DNA of 64,000 nt, from contig JACQQD010000005.1 in assembly GCA_016207165.1 (NCBI GenBank), positions 128,001 to 192,000 of the forward strand, read 5' to 3'. Within the stretch, counting starts at the first letter, position 1. Every line of letters starts with the position of its first letter. Under the pieces are notes generated by a model, which ran no database searches, was not told the origin of the DNA, and was given only the letters and a program-made list of their open reading frames with translations. This DNA is from Candidatus Micrarchaeota archaeon. Its GTDB lineage: Archaea > Micrarchaeota > Micrarchaeia > Norongarragalinales > Norongarragalinaceae. This document shows, one piece after another, positions 1-63,640 of the stretch. Position numbers and translations under genes: made by a program.

Positions 1-386
1 GGGTTTTTCACAGCCAACGCCACGCCCCGTTTTTCCAGGCGGCGCGTGAGTTGGCGCACGATTTCCGGGGACTGAAATTCAAACGACTTGTCGGAGCGGT
101 TTACTTCCACTTTGACGGGGCCGCCCGCGCTTTCGGCCAGGCGCGCCACGGCGTCTTCCATGCCGGACAAACTCCGCTTTGCGTCGAGGCACTCGGCAAA
201 CCATGACACGCCAAAGACTTTCTCGATTTTCGGTAACGCGGACGCGTCGGCATCCAGAAAGAACCGGTGTTCGACGAGTTTGGCTTTGACGTCCGTGGCG
301 TTCTCCAGGTTGCGCTGCAGCTGCCGCTGGAACACGGGCCTGTTTCGGCCCTTGGTGAACAGTTCTCCGTAGTGGACGACGATCAT
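1..386 (-). CDS. thiI: tRNA 4-thiouridine synthase ThiI, N-terminal part (runs off the window)
   Basis: Manual translation MIVVHYGELFTKGRNRPVFQRQLQRN...VFGVSW...VNRSDKSF matches the ThiI NFLD/THUMP N-terminus; GGTGA RBS upstream. Confidence 0.85.
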   Translation of the reverse strand, partial: MIVVHYGELFTKGRNRPVFQRQLQRNLENATDVKAKLVEHRFFLDADASALPKIEKVFGVSWFAECLDAKRSLSGMEDAVARLAESAGGPVKVEVNRSDKSFEFQSPEIVRQLTRRLEKRGVALAVKN

Positions 387-478
387 TTCTTCTCACCGGG
401 TGTGAGGCGGACTAAGCGCCAGGGGGCGGAGCCCCCGGGGCTTAGGTGCAACAGTTCTCCGTAGTGGACAACGATCAT
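358..478. repeat. Hairpin element copy 1, flanked by a 29-bp direct repeat of the thiI start (358-386 and 450-478, 1 mismatch)
   Basis: aacagttctccgtagtggac(g/a)acgatcat occurs twice; core gaggcggactaagcgccagggggcggagcccccggggcttaggtgc is related to 10164-10217. Confidence 0.9.
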
Positions 479-535: not shown

Positions 536-1543
536 ATGGCCATCGTGTTGGGGTTGACGGGAGAGAATTGTGCGGGTAAGGGGACCGTCGCCGAATACTT
601 GGAACGAAAAGGATTCCACTATTACTCCTTGTCCGACGTCATCCGCGAGGAACTCGCGGCGGAAGGCGCGGAGATCACGCGCGAGGCCCTCATTGAAAAA
701 GGCAATCTGTTGCGGGAGACGCAGGGTTCCGACGTTCTGGCCCGCAAAACCATGGACAAGCTCTCCCACGAGAGGAACTTTGTCGTTGACTCGTTTCGCA
801 ACCCCCACGAAGTCAAGGCGTTCAAGAACAAAAACAAGAACTTTTTCTTGTTGTACGTCACCGCTTTGCCGGAAGTACGCTTTGAGCGCATGAAGGCCCG
901 CGGCCGCGAGTCGGACCCCAAGACGTTTGACGCGTTTGAGCGCATCGAAAAAAAAGAGCGGGAAAGCGCGTCGGAACAGCACCAAAGCATTTCCGCTTGC
1001 ATCGGGCTTGCCGACCGCACCATTGAAAACAACGCCGACTTTTCGGCGTTGTACGACGCCGTGGACCGAACGCTCGCCGATCTTTCCAAGGAGTTTTCGG
1101 TGGACCGGCCATCTTGGGACGAGTACTTCATGGGCATCGCAAAGATGGCGTCCACGAGGTCCAACTGCATCAAGCGCAAGGTGGCCGCGGTCATCGTCAA
1201 GGACAAGCGCATCATTTCCACGGGCTACAACGGCACCCCCCGGGGAACGAGGAATTGCAACGAAGGGGGTTGTCCGCGCTGCAACAACTTCTCGCCGTCC
1301 GGCGCTTCCCTGGAGGAATGCTTGTGCTCGCACGCGGAGGAGAACGCCATCGTCCAAAGCTCGTACCACGGCGTGTCCATTGCCGGGTCCACGATTTACT
1401 CGACGTTTTCGCCTTGCCTATTGTGCGCGAAAATGATCGTCAATGCGGGAATTCGGGAAGTCGTGTACGTAGCCGAATACAGCGTGTCGGATACCGCGAA
1501 AAAAATGTTGCAGGAAGCCGGCGTGCAGCTGAGGAAAGTCTAG
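536..1543 (+). CDS. P-loop nucleotide kinase-like domain fused to dCMP deaminase
   Basis: N-terminal GLTGENCAGKGT P-loop; C-terminal RPSWDEYFM, STGYNG, HAEENA and PCLLC zinc motifs. Confidence 0.85.
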   Translation: MAIVLGLTGENCAGKGTVAEYLERKGFHYYSLSDVIREELAAEGAEITREALIEKGNLLRETQGSDVLARKTMDKLSHERNFVVDSFRNPHEVKAFKNKNKNFFLLYVTALPEVRFERMKARGRESDPKTFDAFERIEKKERESASEQHQSISACIGLADRTIENNADFSALYDAVDRTLADLSKEFSVDRPSWDEYFMGIAKMASTRSNCIKRKVAAVIVKDKRIISTGYNGTPRGTRNCNEGGCPRCNNFSPSGASLEECLCSHAEENAIVQSSYHGVSIAGSTIYSTFSPCLLCAKMIVNAGIREVVYVAEYSVSDTAKKMLQEAGVQLRKV

Positions 1544-7711: not shown

Positions 7712-8914
7712 ATGGCTGAAAAAATAACGGTGAACAACGGCATTCTGAACGTTCCGGACCACCCCATCATTCCCCTCATTGAGGGCGACGGCGTGGGCGT
7801 GGACATTACGCCGGTCATGACGACCGTCGTTGACGCGGCCGTGGCCAAGGCTTCCGGCGGCAAGAAGAAAATTGAATGGAAGCCGATTCTGGCCGGCGAG
7901 AAAGCCATTGCCAAGACCAATGAACTGTTGCCCCAGGAAAGCATTGACGCCATCCAGGAGTACGTCGTCTCCATCAAGGGTCCCCTGACCACGCCGGTTG
8001 GCGGCGGGTTCCGGAGCCTGAACGTAACGCTTCGCCAGGTGCTGGACTTGTACGCGTGCGTGCGGCCCGTCAAGTGGTATCCCGGCATTCCCAACCCCAT
8101 GAAGCAACCGGAGAAGTTGAACGTCAAAATCTTCCGCGAGAACACGGAAGACGTGTACGCTGGCATCGAGTGGGATGCCGGCAGTGCCGAAGCCAACAAG
8201 CTCATTGAATTTGTCGCCTCCATGGGAAAGAAAATCCGGCCCAACTCGGCGGTGGGCATCAAACCCATCTCGGAATTCGGCTCCAAGCGCATCGTTCGCG
8301 CGGCCATTCACAACGCCATGAAGTACGGCTTGAGCAAGGTCACTTTGGTGCACAAGGGCAACATCATGAAGTTCACCGAAGGCGGATTCCGGAAGTGGGG
8401 CTACGAGGCCGCCAAGGAGTTTTCCAACACGGTTACGGAAGAGGAAGTCGCCAAAGGCGCGTCCGCGGAAGGAAAAATCATCGTCAACGACCGCATTGCT
8501 GACTCCATGTTCCAACAACTTTTGCTCCGCCCCGATGAATACCAGGTGTTGGCGACCATGAACCTCAACGGCGACTACTTGTCGGACGCCGCCGCGGCGC
8601 AAACCGGGGGCCTGGGCATCGCGCCGGGCGCCAACATCAACTACCAGACCGGCGTCGCGTTGTTTGAAGCCACGCACGGAACCGCTCCGAAGTACGCGGG
8701 CCAGGACAAAGTCAACCCCGGTTCGCTGTTGTTGTCCGCCGTCATGATGCTGCGCTACATGGACTGGAAAACAGCCGCCGACTTGGTGGAAAACGCGTTC
8801 CAGAAAACCATCGACCAGAAAATCGTTACCTACGATCTTTCCCGGCAGATGGAAGGCGCCCAAGAAGTTCGGTGCTCGGAATTCGGGGACGCCATCATCC
8901 GGAACATGGATTGA
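7712..8914 (+). CDS. icd: Isocitrate dehydrogenase (NADP-type)
   Basis: [41 protein letters not shown]. Confidence 0.95.
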
Positions 8915-8918
8915 TCGT

Positions 8919-10133
8919 ATGGCTCAACGCGCAATCCGTGAAATCGACGCCAAAAACATTTTGGTCCACGCCGGCGTGGCGAAATGGCACGGCGTCTTGG
9001 TGGACGGGCAAACGGACTGGAAGACGCTTTCCAAAGACCACCCGTGGCTGTTGAAGGAAAAGCTGGTGGTCAAGCCCGACCAATGCTTTGGCCAACGAGG
9101 CAAGCACGGCTTGGTTTTGTTGAACGCCGATTTGAAGGGCGTCGAGCAATTCGTGCGGAAAAACATGAACCGGGTCGTTGAATTAAACGGCGTGAAAGGC
9201 CCCTTGACGCACTTCTTGATCGAGCCGTTTGTCCCGCATCAAGCCGAGTACTACGCCGCCATCCAGACCGAGAAAGACCACGACGTGGTTTTTTTCTCCT
9301 TGAAAGGCGGCGTGGACGTGGAGGAAAACTGGGACCGCATCCAACCATTCAAAGTCGGAGTCCTTGACGACTTGGATTCGGTGTCCTTTGGCTTGCCCAA
9401 GATGCCGGAGCGCGACGCGGTCCACGCGTTTCTCAAGAAACTCTACCGCGTCTTTGCCGAGAACGACTTTTCGTTTTTGGAGTTGAACCCTTTTTGCATG
9501 GTGGACGGAAAGCCGGTGCTGCTGGATGCCGTGGCGCGGCTGGACGACACGGCGGCCTTCAAAGGCAAGTGGAACGTCGAGTTCCCGGCGCCTTTTGGCC
9601 GGACGTTGTCCAAGGAGGAAGCCTACATCAAGTCGTTGGACGAGAAAACCGGTGCGTCATTGAAGCTGACCGTCTTGAACCCGAAGGGAAAAATCTGGAC
9701 GCTGGTCGCCGGCGGCGGAGCGTCCGTGGTGTACGCCGACACCATCGTCGACTTGGGCTTCCAAAAAGAGCTGGCCAACTACGGAGAGTATTCCGGCAAT
9801 CCCAACGACGAAGAAACCTACCTTTACACCAAAACCGTGCTGGAATTGTTGGTCAAAGGAAACGGGCAGATTCTTTTGATTGGCGGCGGCATCGCCAACT
9901 TCACCGACGTGGCCAAGACCTTCAAAGGCATCATCCAGGCGCTGAGCGAATTTGCGCCGGCGCTCAAGAAAAAAGGCGTGAAAATATACGTTCGCCGCGG
10001 GGGTCCCAACTACCAGCAAGGCTTGGAACACATGCGGCAACTGGGCGAGAAAACGGGTTTGTCCATCCAAGTCTTTGGCCCGGAAACGCATATGACGAAG
10101 ATCGTTCCCATGGCGCTTGAGGAGCTGAAATGA
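8919..10133 (+). CDS. aclB: ATP citrate lyase, ATP-grasp/citrate-binding subunit
   Basis: LVVKPDQ, VAGGGASVVYADT, NYGEYSG, GGGIANFT, RRGGPNYQ. Confidence 0.93.
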   Translation: MAQRAIREIDAKNILVHAGVAKWHGVLVDGQTDWKTLSKDHPWLLKEKLVVKPDQCFGQRGKHGLVLLNADLKGVEQFVRKNMNRVVELNGVKGPLTHFLIEPFVPHQAEYYAAIQTEKDHDVVFFSLKGGVDVEENWDRIQPFKVGVLDDLDSVSFGLPKMPERDAVHAFLKKLYRVFAENDFSFLELNPFCMVDGKPVLLDAVARLDDTAAFKGKWNVEFPAPFGRTLSKEEAYIKSLDEKTGASLKLTVLNPKGKIWTLVAGGGASVVYADTIVDLGFQKELANYGEYSGNPNDEETYLYTKTVLELLVKGNGQILLIGGGIANFTDVAKTFKGIIQALSEFAPALKKKGVKIYVRRGGPNYQQGLEHMRQLGEKTGLSIQVFGPETHMTKIVPMALEELK

Positions 10134-10257
10134 ATGCGTTTACATGAGTTTAGGGAAAGGGGCGAGGCGGAGCAAGCGCCAGGGGAAAACCGTAGGTTTG
10201 CCCCGGGGCTTGCATGCACGAAGATCGTTCCCATGGCGCTTGAGGAGCTGAAGTGAA
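10095..10257. repeat. Hairpin element copy 2, flanked by a 40-bp direct repeat of the aclB end / aclA start (10095-10134 and 10218-10257, 1 mismatch)
   Basis: acgaagatcgttcccatggcgcttgaggagctgaa(a/g)tgaa occurs twice; core gaggcggagcaagcgccaggggaaaaccgtaggtttgccccggggcttgcatgc. Confidence 0.9.
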
Positions 10258-12070
10258 AAAGTTTATGACTCTTTTCGACGAAAACACGCAGGCCATCATC
10301 TTCGGCATGCAAGCCCAAGTCGTCCAACGCATGCTGGATTTCGACTTCATGTGCGGCCGGAAAACCCCGTCGGTGGCCGCCGTGGTCAACCCTTCGGACA
10401 CTCGGATGCTGGCCGTCTTTTTCGGTTCCAAGCAAGTCTTGGTTCCTGTGTACGCGTCCACGAAAGAAGCCTTTCAAAAACATCCCGTTGCCTCGGTGTT
10501 CATCAACTTTGCTTCGTTCCGCTCCGCGTTTGACACCACGTGGGATGCCTTGGATTTGCCGCAAGTTTTGTCCGTGGCCGTGATTGCCGAAGGCATGCCT
10601 GAGCGCGACACCCGGAGGCTTGCGGCGAAAGCCAAAAAACTTTCCAAGCCCTTCATCGGCCCGGCCACCGTCGGCGGCCTGACGGCGGGTTGCTTCAAGA
10701 TTGGCAACACCGGCGGTGCCGTGGACGCCATGATCGACGCGAAACTCTACCGCTCCGGCTCCGTGGGATTCGTTTCCAAGTCCGGCGGCATGTCCAACGA
10801 ATTGTTCAACCTGCTTTCCCACCACACCGACGGCGTCTGCGAAGGCATCGCCATCGGCGGCGACCGCTTCCCCGGCACCACGCTTTACGACCACGTGCAA
10901 CGGTTCGAGAAGGATCCCAAAATCAAGCTCATCGTCGTCTTGGGTGAATTGGGGGGAACCGACGAGTACGACATCGCCGACGCGGTGGCGAAAAAGAAGA
11001 TCAAAAAGCCGGTGGTGGCCTGGGTCACCGGCACCTGCGCGGCGCTTTTTGCCACCGAAGTCCAATTCGGCCATGCGGGCGCCAAGAGCGGTTCCAAGAA
11101 GGAAAGTGCGCAAGAAAAAAACGAGGCCCTAAAAAAAGCGGGGGTCTTCGTTCCGAAAAGCTACGACGACTTCGGTGAACTCATCCAAAAAGTATTCGAG
11201 AAGCACGTGGGAAAAATTCCCGCGGAAACGCAAAACCCCCCCGTCATTCCGGAAGACTTTTCCGTGGCGGTAAAGAAAAACCGAGTCCGCCGGCCCGCCT
11301 CCATCGTGTCCAGCATCTCGGATGACCGCGGCGAAGACGTGCTGTACCACGGCGAGACCCTGACTTCCCTTCTGGAAAGAAAAGCCAGCCTGGGGGACGT
11401 CATCGCTTTGTTGTGGTTCAAAAAGAAGCTTCCCGCCTGGGCCACTGAGTTTATGGAAATGACGCTCAAAATCACGGCCGACCACGGGCCCGCTGTTTCC
11501 GGGGCGCACAACGCCATCGTCGCCTCGCGCGCCGGCAAGGACTTGGTTTCGTGCCTGGCTTCGGGTTTGTTGACCATCGGCCCCCGTTTTGGAGGCGCCA
11601 TTGACGATGCGGCCCGCTACTGGCAAGCGGCCGTCTCTCAAGGACAGGCGCCCAAGGCGTTCGTGGATGAAATGAAAGCCAAGAACGTCTTGATTCCCGG
11701 CATTGGCCACCGCGTCAAATCCATCCAAAACCCCGACGCCCGCGTGGCCGCGCTCAAGGCCTACGCCCAAAAGCATTTCCCGTCCACCCAGCACCTGCAA
11801 TTCGCCTTGGACGTCGAGAAACTGACCACCCAGAAGAAAGGCAACCTGATTCTCAACGTGGACGGCTGCATTGCCGCCTTGTTTCTGGACCTTTTCGATT
11901 CCTGCCCCGAGTTTTCCGGCGAGGAAAAAAGACAGCTGGTGGACATTGGGGTCCTGAATGCCTTTTTTGCTTTGGGGCGAAGCATTGGCATGATTGGGCA
12001 CGCCATCGACCAAAAACGCCTGCAACAGCCCTTGTACCGGCACGACTGGGACGACGTGCTGTACCTCTAA
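10253..12070 (+). CDS. aclA: ATP citrate lyase, CoA-binding/citryl-CoA lyase subunit
   Basis: INFASFRSA, IGPATVGG, KSGGMSNE, QFGHAGA (phospho-His), ADHGPAVSGAHN, YRHDWDD. Confidence 0.94.
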   Translation: MKKFMTLFDENTQAIIFGMQAQVVQRMLDFDFMCGRKTPSVAAVVNPSDTRMLAVFFGSKQVLVPVYASTKEAFQKHPVASVFINFASFRSAFDTTWDALDLPQVLSVAVIAEGMPERDTRRLAAKAKKLSKPFIGPATVGGLTAGCFKIGNTGGAVDAMIDAKLYRSGSVGFVSKSGGMSNELFNLLSHHTDGVCEGIAIGGDRFPGTTLYDHVQRFEKDPKIKLIVVLGELGGTDEYDIADAVAKKKIKKPVVAWVTGTCAALFATEVQFGHAGAKSGSKKESAQEKNEALKKAGVFVPKSYDDFGELIQKVFEKHVGKIPAETQNPPVIPEDFSVAVKKNRVRRPASIVSSISDDRGEDVLYHGETLTSLLERKASLGDVIALLWFKKKLPAWATEFMEMTLKITADHGPAVSGAHNAIVASRAGKDLVSCLASGLLTIGPRFGGAIDDAARYWQAAVSQGQAPKAFVDEMKAKNVLIPGIGHRVKSIQNPDARVAALKAYAQKHFPSTQHLQFALDVEKLTTQKKGNLILNVDGCIAALFLDLFDSCPEFSGEEKRQLVDIGVLNAFFALGRSIGMIGHAIDQKRLQQPLYRHDWDDVLYL

Positions 12071-63531: not shown

Positions 63532-63640
63532 GCCAGGGTGGCGGAGCGGTTATCGCGCCGGTCTTGAAGGCCCTACGTAATCAAAGGCCCAGAAAACCGG
63601 TGCCCTCACGGGCGCAGGAGTTCGAATCTCCTCCCTGGCG
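63532..63640 (+). tRNA. tRNA-Ser(UGA) with 26-nt intron at position 37/38 (63569-63594)
   Basis: Acceptor GCCAGGG/CCCTGGC-G, anticodon stem CCGGT/ACCGG with CT-TGA-A, long variable arm, GTTCGAATC T-loop, relaxed bulge-helix-bulge. Confidence 0.93.

Follow-up and report, generated by a model that had tools for sequence, protein, structure and literature searches.

A family of small hairpin-forming elements between duplicated gene ends in a Micrarchaeota clade

Described systems that resemble the element

Free-standing homing-endonuclease genes of fungal mitochondria (mORFs) form 'gene hybrids' in atp6, atp9, cox2 and nad3 of Glomus, Allomyces, Rhizopus and Mortierella. According to PMC3630166, the inserted and the displaced native C-terminus have low nucleotide but high amino acid identity (63.5% versus 91% for the two atp6 copies). 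These endonuclease-driven hybrids are the closest parallel to the element studied here, which we call E. In both systems the insertion lies near a gene end and carries a replacement terminus, the native terminus lies downstream as a displaced duplicate, the copies differ more in nucleotides than in amino acids (synonymous to nonsynonymous differences of 46:5 and 40:5 for E, see below), and presence varies among close relatives. In contrast, the mORF insert, on which the hybrids depend, is an ORF of about 1 kb encoding the LAGLIDADG or GIY-YIG endonuclease by which it moves, whereas the E insert comprises 60-150 nt without an ORF, and no nuclease was found for it. Furthermore, E occurs at gene starts and tRNA ends and not only at the 3' ends of protein genes, and it resides in the chromosome of an archaeon, not in mitochondrial DNA.

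Plasmids, proviruses and islands that integrate into tRNA genes, bounded by attL and attR, share other features with E. In nine cases E repeats at tRNA genes likewise derive from the 3' part, from the T-loop to the end (the T-loop sublocation is typical of tRNA-targeting integrases), the gene is reconstituted at one junction with a displaced fragment at the other, and several E-bearing genomes contain tyrosine recombinases. However, E repeats enclose only 60-150 nt without cargo or integrase, and E uses dozens of unrelated protein-gene ends, with a repeat length that is not fixed.

MITEs and REPs are small, non-coding, multi-copy, hairpin-forming and intergenic according to the review PMC10969869. 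E resembles them in each of these features and in its variable presence among relatives, and some of their copies are also flanked by direct repeats. MITEs are typically AT-rich, with terminal inverted repeats that match a partner IS and short target duplications of fixed length, whereas E is GC-rich, carries a second helix besides its asymmetric 5' box, and is flanked by repeats of 15-95 bp from gene termini. A self-BLAST of the genome found no partner IS for E. REPs accompany RAYT genes, and RAYT was not found in the E-bearing genomes searched. E also differs from SINE-like retroposons in that no RT was found in six E-bearing genomes, and from casposon- or CRISPR-type integration in that no Cas1 was found in G000.

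Integron attC sites conserve their fold and not their sequence; they are imperfect hairpins with unpaired bases and one functional strand, and are recombined by a tyrosine recombinase. E similarly conserves a fold, an imperfect hairpin with conserved unpaired bases and one strand, and its partner enzyme would likewise be a tyrosine recombinase, but it lacks cassette arrays, an attI site and an internal gene, and we know of no attC recombination that leaves a long duplication of target genes. Mycobacterial MIRUs are intercistronic tandem repeats with coupled small ORFs, and bypass elements (T4 gene 60, yeast mitochondrial byps) are gaps of about 27-55 nt. Like E, these are small inserts at cistron boundaries with short ORFs that overlap the start or stop of their neighbours, or a hairpin with matching codons on both sides. 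However, MIRUs are tandem and do not duplicate gene ends, and bypass gaps lie inside genes.

Among the prokaryotic repeat families compared, three features of E are without counterpart: the gene-terminus repeats of 15-95 bp, the polarity fixed towards the intact gene, and the protein-coding character retained by both repeat copies. Our search of the full-text literature found no account of the E family, nor of small archaeal hairpin elements enclosed by long duplications of gene termini.

Two copies in the window and the family to which they belong

We analysed a stretch of 64,000 nt (the window) from a Candidatus Micrarchaeota archaeon (GenBank assembly GCA_016207165.1, contig JACQQD010000005.1, positions 128,001 to 192,000). 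The features of its two E copies are collected in Table 1. An earlier note on this DNA, made from the letters alone, had described the first 29 bp of thiI as duplicated around a 63-bp insert, with a single synonymous mismatch. Both statements are correct: the repeats are identical at 28 of 29 positions, and the mismatch (GTC/GTT on the gene strand) leaves valine unchanged. The gene was identified as thiI by Pfam ThiI (E 8.7e-52); it encodes 368 aa in full, extends past the start of the window and has its true start codon at 384-386. The insert (387-449) contains a Shine-Dalgarno-like GGTGA in the linker, 6 nt upstream of the true ATG, and positions 398-403 are a mutated version of the GGGGGC box of the family. 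E itself proceeds from GAGGCGGA via helix S1 (GGCG/CGCC) and outer helix S2 (CTAAG/CTTAG) to the apical hairpin GGGGGC-GGA-GCCCCC, with a G-G mismatch and a bulged A. In the tail, GGTG agrees with the stretch of the gene immediately to the left of the inner repeat except for one extra C, which G009 has as well. The TGA stop of the mini-ORF overlaps the true thiI ATG (ATGA).

Table 1. Coordinates of the two E copies and adjoining genes in the window.
Feature	Position	Strand	Evidence or remark
thiI, 5' part	3..386	-	ORF lists; Pfam ThiI, ThiI_fer and THUMP matches
Copy 1 inner repeat, first 29 nt of thiI, continuous with gene body	358..386	-	28/29 versus 450-478
Copy 1 mini-ORF, 31 codons, from outer ATG through E	383..478	-	
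Copy 1 linker, true start to element	387..403	-	gene strand reads ...CCCGGTGAGAAGAA-ATG
Copy 1 element core E	404..445	+	nhmmer E 1e-4
Copy 1 short tail GTGC, E to outer repeat	446..449	+	
Copy 1 outer displaced repeat, own ATG 476-478	450..478	-	adjoins native promoter region
aclB (ATP-citrate lyase beta subunit), ends in copy 2 inner repeat	8919..10133	+	
Copy 2 inner repeat, final 12 aclB codons plus stop and 1 nt	10095..10134	+	
Copy 2 bridging ORF, 40 codons, from ATG after aclB stop through E to native stop	10134..10256	+	
Copy 2 linker, opens with ATG immediately 3' of aclB stop	10135..10158	+	
Copy 2 element core E, GGGGCGAGGCGGAGCAAGCGCC...GGGGCTTGC	10159..10213	+	nhmmer E 3.6e-11
Copy 2 tail ATGC	10214..10217	+	
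Copy 2 outer displaced repeat, continuous with native spacer and aclA start	10218..10257	+	
aclA (ATP-citrate lyase alpha subunit)	10268..12070	+	start by alignment with relatives

The second copy lies between the genes for the beta (aclB) and alpha (aclA) subunits of ATP-citrate lyase, the latter probably starting at the ATG at 10268. Its 40-bp repeats differ at one position, AAA/AAG, both encoding lysine, and enclose an 83-bp insert (10135-10217).

All genomes studied here are metagenome-assembled, which would be compatible with an assembly or binning artefact. Copy 1 was covered end to end, without differences, by independent Logan contigs of runs X1 and X2, both of which may be source samples. 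One X2 contig, however, joins window 10094 to 10218 and omits copy 2. At this joint 35 letters fit both sides, an overlap that presumably exceeds the word length of the assembler; the joint may therefore reflect either a shortcut in the assembly graph or a genuine empty allele. The same architecture was found in G000, G001, G002 and G009 and in 18 of 23 scorable metagenome copies, and repeat pairs cannot be assembler duplicates where they differ, codon-periodically, at up to about 20% of positions. An artefact is therefore a practically negligible explanation.

As the earlier note had seen, the two inserts share a motif. This motif, AAGCGCCAGGGG-N(3-25)-CCCCGGGGCTT, had two occurrences in the window and none in 100 dinucleotide shuffles. 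E is a dispersed multi-copy family with a core of about 45-65 nt, which is longer where hairpins are nested. We found 15 copies in G000 (nhmmer, E <= 1), 11 of them with flanking repeats scoring at least 18. The strict E pattern was present in 6 of the 68 genomes of the order, versus 0 for the reversed-pattern control, and had no matches in viral contigs. Micrarchaeota-type titles accounted for 25 of the 49 matching genome_contigs stretches; the remaining matches were single ones in other taxa, mostly high-GC bacteria. As a multi-copy family, E is confined to one Micrarchaeota clade; in other Micrarchaeota lineages it is present as a single copy. No Rfam family matched E: the gathering scan of the window returned only a tRNA, E-value scans of two E copies gave best values of 1-3.7, far below the cut-offs, and six single-copy E loci yielded only an rRNA.

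Copies within one genome were mostly diverged from each other, even where their repeats were perfect. The element ends read GGGGCGAGG... and ...GGGGCGACC or CTTAG, and are in direct, not inverted, orientation. E has a precise 3' end and, on its 5' side, a variable linker, at times with an A-run. Truncated copies were not seen; those that appeared truncated were mutated or nested variants. The orientation of E showed no replication-strand bias relative to GC skew. Inserts contained no ORFs except the mini-ORFs and bridging ORFs that read through them, and the idea that E is a fixed coding module was rejected, since the reading phase through E varies in these ORFs.

The GGGGCGAGG strand of E folds as two helices (S1, S2) surrounding a G/C hairpin. 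Pairing in S1 was found in 39 and 39 of 40 element sequences, and in the successive columns of S2 in 40, 40, 20, 39 and 39 of 40, a level that 0 of 2000 shuffles reached in the four strong columns of S2 or in the two columns of S1. Compensatory changes back both helices. The outer-stem covariation reported earlier for the two window copies (CTAAGC/GCTTAG versus GCAAGC/GCTTGC) extends to 13 pair-types across 40 distinct element sequences, and in an orthologous copy GGCCC/GGGCC in G000 corresponds to GGCGC/GCGCC in G001. Both strands of the window copies folded better than 200 of 200 shuffles (z -3.1 to -3.8), and G-T wobbles point to one folding strand. Two sequence details reported with the covariation did not generalize: the C-GNA-G triloop is present in both window copies, but other loops occur elsewhere in the family, and the left repeat preceded by TG and beginning with A did not recur in other copies.

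A strand-specific imperfect hairpin with conserved unpaired bases, in a dispersed non-coding family, is what one would expect of a REP/REPIN-like or IS200/IS605-derived hairpin moved by an HUH enzyme (RAYT or TnpA), the lead followed in the earlier note. Y1-HUH (PF01797), however, had no match in G000, G001, G002, G009, G005 and G007, and the TnpB zinc-ribbon family (PF07282) had none in G000; control genomes matched in both searches. RT (PF00078) had no match in G000 and five other element-bearing genomes, nor did Cas1 (PF01867) in G000. With none of these genes found, the HUH/RAYT idea is unsupported. In addition, the GNA triloop is not conserved, and HUH elements are not known to leave a target duplication. 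We consider this origin highly improbable.

Duplicated gene ends, empty sites and coding constraint

Around most E copies, the terminal 15-95 bp of the adjacent gene occur twice, once on each side and in direct orientation. Of 63 copies, 38 had flanking repeats scoring at least 15, 7 scored 12-14 and 18 scored below 12, compared with a mean of 7.3 (95th percentile 9, maximum 17) in 170 mismatched-flank controls. In a replication set of metagenome contigs from several record series, repeats of at least 15 were found in 18 of 23 scorable copies. The repeats consist of gene starts, gene stops or tRNA ends, and they differ at every site. Hence, the earlier expectation of a non-autonomous repeated family whose insertions come with a copied gene terminus applies well beyond the window (45 of 63 copies at a score of at least 12), as does the remark that the repeats are much longer than ordinary target duplications.

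The intact gene lies almost always on the 5' side of E. The gene remains whole because the inner copy is continuous with its body; the outer copy is displaced and remains attached to the native flank on the 3' side of E. The outer end of the left repeat coincided with an ORF terminus in 20 of 27 repeat-bearing copies (five of the other seven being tRNA cases), and an ORF start at the mirror position was found in only 4. There is at least one exception: the G000 copy at C6:20985, which adjoins a tRNA-Leu gene, has the intact gene on its 3' side. Only a few nt separate the outer repeat boundary from the start or stop codon. Relative to the gene, E is sense-oriented at 3' ends and antisense-oriented at 5' ends, and at gene stops its 5' edge often supplies a new TAA or TAG. 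Several copies have microhomology at the E-tail junction (e.g., CGAC, TCCGG, GGTG), and filler is also present at junctions.

More than 30 different gene ends were occupied. In G000, 6 of the 15 copies lay less than 400 nt from one of the 47 tRNA genes, and 19 of the 63 copies overall were tRNA-adjacent. The nine cases at tRNA 3' ends have repeats that run from the T-loop to the tRNA end or the T-run; on the opposite strand, E copies come immediately after tRNA 3' ends and before T-runs. Some copies that lack long repeats are situated in predicted tRNA introns or in spacers. As a source of the extra 1-2 nt at tRNA junctions, reverse-transcription errors at modified T-loop bases were considered and dropped; the extra nucleotides are better read as E tail, because GTTG/GTTCTG also occurs at a junction outside a T-loop. 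Another candidate was that the repeat end marks the transcription start of leaderless genes. This fits thiI in G000, where a TATA-like box (TTTATA) lies 25 nt upstream, but the box is 53 nt away in G001 and several other sites do not fit. Locus L034 contains a tandem repeat-E-repeat-E-repeat array. The one-sided position of the intact gene, the tRNA ends as favoured sites and the mini-ORF that links the outer copy to the true start had been overlooked in the earlier reading.

Related genomes hold exact empty versions of E sites, for which the earlier note had recommended a search. The acl site is empty in G001 and G002 and the thiI site in G002; conversely, three sites that are filled in G001 or G002 are empty in G000, and one gene start is filled in G000 and G009 and empty in G001 and G002. 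At thiI and at a tRNA-Arg site, the same junction is present in two to three genomes, and the repeat copies are alike within a genome but different between genomes, a pattern that needs gene conversion or repeated re-formation. In alignments, the likeness between the inner and outer copies of thiI begins at an identical GGT in three genomes.

Such filled and empty sites could result from transposition with long and variable staggered cuts, in which a MITE-like E is mobilised in trans and fill-in at the target creates the repeats, which start out identical. Selection would keep only those insertions whose duplication spans a gene end, and homologous recombination with insertion-free relatives would later overwrite each repeat copy with functional alleles up to the heterology. 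Many pairs are indeed perfect or nearly so, with 0-1 mismatches (thiI, acl, C3, C9 and several G001 sites). Filler and microhomology at the junctions, the copies in tRNA introns or spacers without long repeats, and the scarcity of neutral space in a compact genome are also in line with this scenario. Yet no transposase, RT, Cas1, Y1-HUH, TnpB or IS-like multi-copy gene was found, and the genome self-BLAST yielded no IS-like repeat of at least 500 bp at high identity, contig-end overlaps aside. To our knowledge, no transposase produces repeats that vary from 15 to 95 bp. Moreover, symmetric duplication followed by selection predicts neither a boundary at the start or stop codon nor an intact gene on the 5' side, and E copies are mostly diverged within a genome even where their repeats are perfect. 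Staggered-cut transposition is therefore an unlikely, though by no means far-fetched, origin.

The repeats are not inert, another point that the earlier reading had missed: the copies diverge almost solely at synonymous sites. Comparison of inner and outer repeats at 21 loci (262 codons) gave 46 synonymous and 5 nonsynonymous differences (p = 4e-26), and mismatches at the three codon positions numbered 6, 5 and 46, whereas shifted-frame controls gave synonymous to nonsynonymous ratios of 2:46 and 3:41. In the replication set the ratio was 40:5, with 8, 3 and 39 mismatches per codon position. At an old site shared by two species, the four copies are about equally distant at synonymous sites (counted by eye); synonymous divergence is saturated there, yet both copies show constraint at the protein level. 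These equal distances fit long-term constraint in place at least as well as a foreign origin of one copy.

In 14 of 16 start-type insertions, the mini-ORF that begins in the outer copy ends within 15 nt of the true start, compared with 1 and 3 of 16 in shifted-frame controls, a comparison that is partly trivial because shifted frames mostly stop within the repeat. An SD-like 4-mer lies 3-14 nt upstream of the inner start in 14 of the 16 insertions and before the outer start in 8 of 16. Translation at gene starts may thus run from the outer start codon through E and stop at the true start, where the preceding SD-like motif would permit termination-reinitiation. Frameshifting or read-through into the outer copy was rejected: the repeat unit modulo 3 is 0, 1 or 2 without preference.

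Constraint on both copies, even at the old shared site, might also mean that E is a cis element useful to its host (for instance, an RNA or DNA structure in processing, termination or translational coupling), or that the insert is bypassed by a ribosome hop or eliminated by RNA removal or by frequent precise excision. In the latter case both copies would really encode the protein end, as a 'fail-safe' insertion. The compensatory change that keeps the fold at an orthologous site, the mini-ORF ending at the true start, the opposite-strand copies between tRNA 3' ends and T-runs, and the single-copy E of other Micrarchaeota lineages agree with such a role. A cis element with one folding strand would not be expected, however, to lie sense at 3' ends and antisense at 5' ends, or to be polymorphic between close relatives. 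With regard to fail-safe insertion, only 5 of 12 cases at 3' ends have a repeat unit divisible by 3, many of the 3'-end cases have no start codon in the frame of the outer copy, and a hop at the last codon would not place the entire outer copy under constraint. Micrarchaeota reportedly carry a splicing endonuclease of broad specificity, and two E copies lie within predicted tRNA introns. No bulge-helix-bulge motif was apparent when the folds were inspected: the 1x1 or 2x2 internal loop, 2 bp and 1-nt bulge that they contain differ from the canonical pair of 3-nt bulges with a 4-bp helix between them at the two cut sites. We judge a host-useful or fail-safe role quite unlikely.

Possible routes of insertion and significance

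Tyrosine recombinases of about 400 aa with a zinc ribbon were found in G000 (three), G001 (two), G002 (one) and G009 (one), and were absent from element-free G004. In the order as a whole, this integrase family occurs in 33 of 68 genomes, many of them element-free; tblastn with the integrase on 43 element-bearing metagenome loci gave no matches, and G005, in which E is present, had no match to the integrase query. The genomes are incomplete (G000 is 90% complete), and absence of an enzyme is therefore read here as 'not found'. The tyrosine integrase, which never adjoins E, is at most weakly suggested as a candidate enzyme.

If this enzyme acted in trans, E might behave as a miniature integrative element, a small circle of E and a gene-end segment that enters the gene through Campbell-type recombination in the segment shared by both, in the manner of proviruses and plasmids at tRNA genes. 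With repeated excision and re-integration, the two copies would be shuffled and both thus exposed to selection. The preference for tRNA 3' ends with T-loop-to-end repeats in nine cases, the invariable reconstitution of the gene, the tandem array at L034 and the distribution over the first five genomes named above are compatible with this mechanism, as is a Ser-Glu-Leu codon patch that is swapped reciprocally between inner and outer copies of G000 and G001 (by eye). A site-specific integrase cannot serve more than 30 unrelated targets, however, and the many element-free genomes with integrase, the 43 loci without a match and G005 also speak against it, as does the lack of observed circles. Hence, we consider such integration decidedly improbable.

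The best explanation, to which we give a little less than an even chance, is an insertion cassette without an ORF that couples E to a replacement gene terminus. The inserted unit would consist of a gene-terminal segment, the linker and E. Its E-side end would join the target inside the gene, often via a few bases of microhomology, and its other side would merge with the gene through the shared terminal segment. The process would be a recombination that delivers a replacement gene end, and not a transposase cut with fill-in. tRNA-integrating elements and mitochondrial mORFs leave an architecture of this kind, which in the case of E has no ORF in the insert. If recombination with relatives took place in tracts that halt at the insert, the two copies would differ as functional alleles do, i.e., synonymously.

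Several observations weigh against the cassette. Its mobilising enzyme was not found, the insert has no ORF, and the integrase family shows the same mismatch with the distribution of E as above (33 of 68 genomes including element-free ones, none of 43 metagenome loci). A cassette that requires a matching gene segment fails to explain how new ends are colonised, although more than 30 are occupied. Many repeat pairs are perfect, and for these an ordinary target duplication is simpler; 18 of the 63 copies have no long repeat at all. The shared thiI and tRNA-Arg junctions call for gene conversion or repeated re-formation, and the old shared site fits in-place constraint at least as well. Finally, C6:20985 has reversed polarity, and no circular or free form of E was seen.

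It is possible, though doubtful, that E is more specifically a locus-specific homing cassette of about 50 nt, without an ORF, that travels with a replacement gene end of 15-95 bases and invades the same gene end in relatives, while the native end is left displaced and yet under selection; in a bolder form of this proposal, the insert would be skipped or excised often enough for both copies to serve as the protein end.

The genomes of DPANN archaea are very small and so densely filled with genes that they contain almost no neutral space. The E family shows one route by which repeated DNA spreads in such genomes, namely via exact gene-end sites, where a second copy of the gene end is brought or created and the gene therefore survives the insertion. 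If the process is recombinational, E marks the exchange of gene ends between species and could trace the flow of DNA in uncultivated archaea. A skipped or excised insert, in turn, would represent a new kind of recoding or programmed rearrangement. Should the homing or the fail-safe reading be true, E would be a selfish or regulatory element that lives in the ends of essential genes of a minimal genome without a known enzyme class. In addition, E repeats may mislead assemblers as well as gene callers, the latter through wrong starts, spurious small ORFs and seemingly duplicated tRNA ends.

The element family

Two copies of a hairpin element, here called E, lie in the window, and their duplicated termini and inserts match base for base what the earlier note had described. 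At copy 1 the minus-strand gene is thiI (Pfam ThiI, E = 8.7e-52), and the sole mismatch between its repeats is GTC/GTT (Val/Val). The repeats of copy 2, at the end of the ATP-citrate lyase beta gene (the acl site), show a single AAA/AAG difference and enclose an insert of 83 bp. In 100 shuffles the core motif common to both inserts never appeared, against two occurrences in the window, and both cores fold better than 200 of 200 shuffles on either strand. Furthermore, independently assembled contigs from two public runs, which may be the source samples, span copy 1 with 0 differences. The finding is real rather than an artefact.

A profile search of the genome containing the window (G000; 1.27 Mb, 12 contigs, 90% complete) yielded 15 copies at E <= 1, 13 of them at E <= 1e-4. 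A strict E pattern was present in six of the 68 genomes of the order, all of one family (7 matches in G000, 11 in G001, 6 in G009, 2 in G002, and one each in G005 and G007), and the reversed-pattern control gave 0 everywhere. E is a dispersed multi-copy family. Of the 49 matching stretches in a species-level genome collection, 25 were titled Candidatus Micrarchaeota, Micrarchaeales, Anstonellales or Norongarragalinales MAGs. The remaining 24 were lone matches in other groups, chiefly high-GC bacteria, and none of the eight inspected non-Micrarchaeota stretches had a convincing flanking repeat. The host is therefore very likely a Micrarchaeota (DPANN) archaeon, in accord with its TATA-like boxes and its tRNA genes with introns. 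The strict pattern had no matches in viral contigs, and no Rfam family matched E. G000 also contains at least 12 copies of a second dispersed repeat of about 100 bp, with two adjoining hairpins and beginning TTTATAGCAA, at which flanking direct repeats were not seen by eye.

Along the folding strand, the parts of E are, in 5'-to-3' order, a 5' box, GGGGGCGA; GG-NN(N), which forms the 5' side of helix S1; a short loop in which the 5' side of the outer helix S2 is embedded; the matching 3' side of S1, (N)NN-CC; a bulged A followed by a hairpin of G4-6/C4-6 whose loop varies and, in long variants, carries nested extra hairpins; GGGG; and the 3' side of S2 (CGACC, CTTAG, CTTGC, ATCCG, ATTCG and others). 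Among 40 distinct E sequences, the two variable pairs of S1 were formed in 39 and 39, and those of S2 in 40, 40, 20, 39 and 39. S1 showed at least six pair-types and S2 13, which are not independent events because the copies are kin by descent. The observed values of the strong S1/S2 columns were reached by 0 of 2000 shuffles, and one orthologous copy differs by a clean compensatory substitution, with GGCCC/GGGCC in G000 and GGCGC/GCGCC in G001. The two helices are predicted to overlap as in an H-type pseudoknot, and the strand that folds is the GGGGCGAGG-strand, as G-T wobbles show (e.g. CG/TG, in seven sequences). The C-GNA-G triloop is found in both window copies and is restricted to these two. 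Nested hairpins were observed inside the S1 loop (GCGATGG...CCATCGC) and inside the apical loop (GCAGGTCCGAAGGACTTGC).

Coordinates of the window copies and of associated features (C, contig; L, fetched locus; G001, G009, other genomes of the order)
Feature	Location	Remarks
Copy 1, thiI-start repeats	window 358-386, 450-478	gene on minus strand; first 29 nt doubled, 28/29
Copy 1, insert	window 387-449	63 bp
Copy 2, repeats	window 10095-10134, 10218-10257	40 bp; ATP-citrate lyase beta gene, last 12 codons and stop
Joint of copy 2 ends	window 10094-10218	a single Logan contig from run X2, depth 21.7, shows the exact empty form; 35 letters match either side; may reflect a genuinely empty allele or an assembly-graph shortcut via the repeat
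Kinase-deaminase gene	window 536-1543	P-loop kinase domain (AAA_18/ADK-like) fused to cytidine/dCMP deaminase domain; divergent from thiI, TATA-like region common to both
Depth peak	window 8001-8800	summed contig depth 920 (run X2), 370 (run X4) versus about 25, about 2 nearby; many loose ends; looks like a conserved gene segment common to other organisms in the samples
tRNA match	window 63532-63640	109 nt, intron-bearing
Second repeat family (examples)	G000 C9:53700-53801, C9:46793-46894, C2:33848-33945, C12:36005-36123	outside window
Paralogous tyrosine recombinases	G000 C3:309-1529, C5:32432-33631	62% identical
Long E variants, nested hairpins	G000 C8:6310-6403, C6:92231-92350; L009 (G009 thiI site); L109, L130, L113
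E in ARAGORN-predicted tRNA introns	L038 (tRNA-Phe), L005 (tRNA-Ser)	introns 107, 81 nt
E abutting tRNA 3' end, opposite strand	G000 C6:20985; L019, L112, L007	no long repeat; T-run after
Tandem repeat-E-repeat-E-repeat	L034 (G009 C13:481-950)	one gene start; 3-4 copies of gene-start segment
E with 18-bp weak repeat	L047 (G001 C14)	within uninterrupted open frame > 454 codons; may be an in-frame insertion inside a gene

Duplicated gene termini

Flanking direct repeats were scored in 63 non-redundant copies from G000 and fetched genome loci (set 1). Scores were at least 15 in 38 copies, 12-14 in seven and below 12 in 18, compared with a mean of 7.3, a 95th percentile of 9 and a maximum of 17 when left flanks were set against right flanks taken from different copies (n = 170). 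In a replication set of 27 copies from metagenome contigs, none identical to set 1 and four too close to an edge to be scored, 18 of 23 scored at least 15. The flanking duplications are thus a property of other copies as well. Repeats measured 18-95 bp in set 1 and 15-66 bp in the replication set. The right repeat begins 0-10 nt past S2, and the linker from the left repeat to the GGGG box spans 5-36 nt, or more in composite variants.

The duplicated segments are gene termini. An ORF of at least 90 codons was assignable in 21 of the 38 strong set 1 cases, comprising 11 gene starts (gene strand opposite E) and 10 gene stops (E's strand). The other 17 were tRNA 3' ends, tRNA 5' ends, two protein 3' ends (short or long-diverged ORFs) and a few without assignment. 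Genes for tRNA are strongly favoured sites. In G000, six of the 15 copies have one of the 47 tRNA genes (ARAGORN; several intron-bearing) no more than 400 nt away, 19 of the 63 set 1 copies are tRNA-adjacent, and in nine tRNA 3'-end cases the repeat runs from the T-loop to the tRNA end or T-run.

The arrangement is polar, with an inner repeat joined to the gene body on E's 5' side and a displaced outer duplicate on its 3' side. In 20 of 27 repeat-bearing copies the left repeat had an ORF terminus at its outer end, with the intact gene on E's 5' side, and five of the remaining seven were tRNA cases of the same polarity; an ORF start of any kind occupied the mirror position in only four. One clear exception, at G000 C6:20985, has a tRNA-Leu on the 3' side and a decayed left copy. 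At gene starts the outer boundary fell 0-2 nt past ATG in seven of the 10 cases first examined, and 8-12 nt past it where the native SD falls within the repeat; at stops it fell at -4 to +8 nt relative to the stop codon. Stop codons differed between the two copies in seven of 12 stop cases. In six of these the inner copy had TAA or TAG, matched by an outer TGA in five and TAG in one. Many E copies have TAA or TAG immediately 5' of the GGGG box, so that E's edge is often the source of the new stop.

Divergence of the copies and origin of the repeats

Unexpectedly, both copies stay coding. In 21 inner/outer pairs from protein genes (262 codons), mismatches at codon positions 1, 2 and 3 numbered 6, 5 and 46. 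Differing codons were synonymous in 46 cases and nonsynonymous in five (p = 4e-26, where random single changes would yield a synonymous fraction of 0.21), versus 2:46 and 3:41 in shifted frames. The replication set gave 40:5, with 8, 3 and 39 mismatches by position. Pair divergence ranged from 0 to about 20% and included serine AGC-TCT/TCA switches. Such behaviour should not be expected of a displaced, useless copy. The repeats do not qualify as ordinary target duplications, as the earlier note had argued from length, because they vary from 15 to 95 bp, because the gene end sets their polarity and outer boundary, and because both copies remain protein-coding.

Empty alleles were found in sister genomes. 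The acl site is filled in G000 and empty in G001 and G002, the thiI site is filled in G000, G001 and G009 and empty in G002, and three other sites are filled in G001 or G002 and empty in G000. A gene start encoding MAKENVKP... is filled in G000 (59 bp) and G009 (26 bp) and empty in G001 and G002. For a stop-type site filled at the same inner junction in G000 and G001, no empty form was found. In each of the three filled genomes, the thiI outer copy begins to resemble the gene at one and the same GGT, where G000 and G009 also share an extra C. The thiI repeats are near-identical within each genome and unlike between genomes, as are those of a tRNA-Arg site that G000 and G001 share, which requires gene conversion of the copies or repeated re-formation at one junction. 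This concerted evolution contrasts with deep synonymous divergence elsewhere. At the stop-type site common to G000 and G001, all four copies specify an identical run of 26 residues bar three conservative changes, and mutually differ at 14-17 of 23-26 codons (by eye).

Homologous recombination with insertion-free relatives may rewrite each side as far as the heterology. Alternatively, the inner copy may be foreign and element-borne, by analogy with fungal mitochondrial 'gene hybrids', whose inserted and native C-termini share 63.5% nucleotide and 91% amino-acid identity (PMC3630166); the likeness is that inserted and native termini have diverged more in nucleotides than in amino acids. A third reading is that both copies may truly be in use. 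At the MAKENVKP site the G000 inner copy agrees with relatives in reading CCC, ACC and CGC at three codons for which the outer copy carries unique synonymous variants, a pattern consistent with either of the first two readings.

These results establish E as a Micrarchaeota-specific, structure-defined, ORF-less insertion element between two copies of a gene or tRNA terminus, in line with the proposal of a non-autonomous family. We rate highest, though tentatively, a recombinational 'replacement-terminus cassette', in which recombination would bring a replacement terminus along with E and later allele exchange would stop at the insert. True long-stagger transposition ranks second and seems rather unlikely. 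Cas1, RT, Y1-HUH and TnpB were not found in G000, nor RT and Y1-HUH in five further element-bearing genomes, while control genomes matched each search; no IS-like multi-copy gene was found in G000. The suggested HUH/RAYT mobiliser, with a co-occurring HUH or RT gene, is therefore unsupported in these six genomes. E might also comprise mini-elements driven by an integrase, given that a family of tyrosine recombinases, about 400 aa long with a zinc ribbon at the C-terminus, is represented in element-bearing G000 (3 matches), G001 (2), G002 (1) and G009 (1) and is missing from element-free G004. However, 33 of the order's 68 genomes carry this family, some of them from lineages that lack E, and none of the 43 element-bearing metagenome loci contains it; we consider this origin improbable. 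E orientation showed no relation to GC skew. E does not fit the definition of any named family considered here and is filed as a variant among small non-autonomous prokaryotic elements; there is a real, if lesser, chance that its mechanism is new in kind.

Reading frames across the insertion

At start-type sites the outer copy retains a start codon beside the native promoter region. In 14 of 16 cases, the mini-ORF running from this codon through E and the linker terminates no more than 15 nt from the true start; shifted frames do so in one and three of 16, a control that is partly trivial because they mostly stop within the repeat. Five of the 14 endings are ATGA overlaps. The true start has an SD-like 4-mer 3-14 nt upstream in 14 of the 16, the outer start in eight. 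The natural reading of these sequences is that the transcript would begin at the native promoter, with termination-reinitiation at the true start. A functional reading, in which both copies are used, seems a distant prospect, ranking after transposition. The reading phase through E varies between copies. At gene stops, a bridging ORF links the new stop to the native stop in about half of the cases, and at the acl site its ATG follows straight after TGA.
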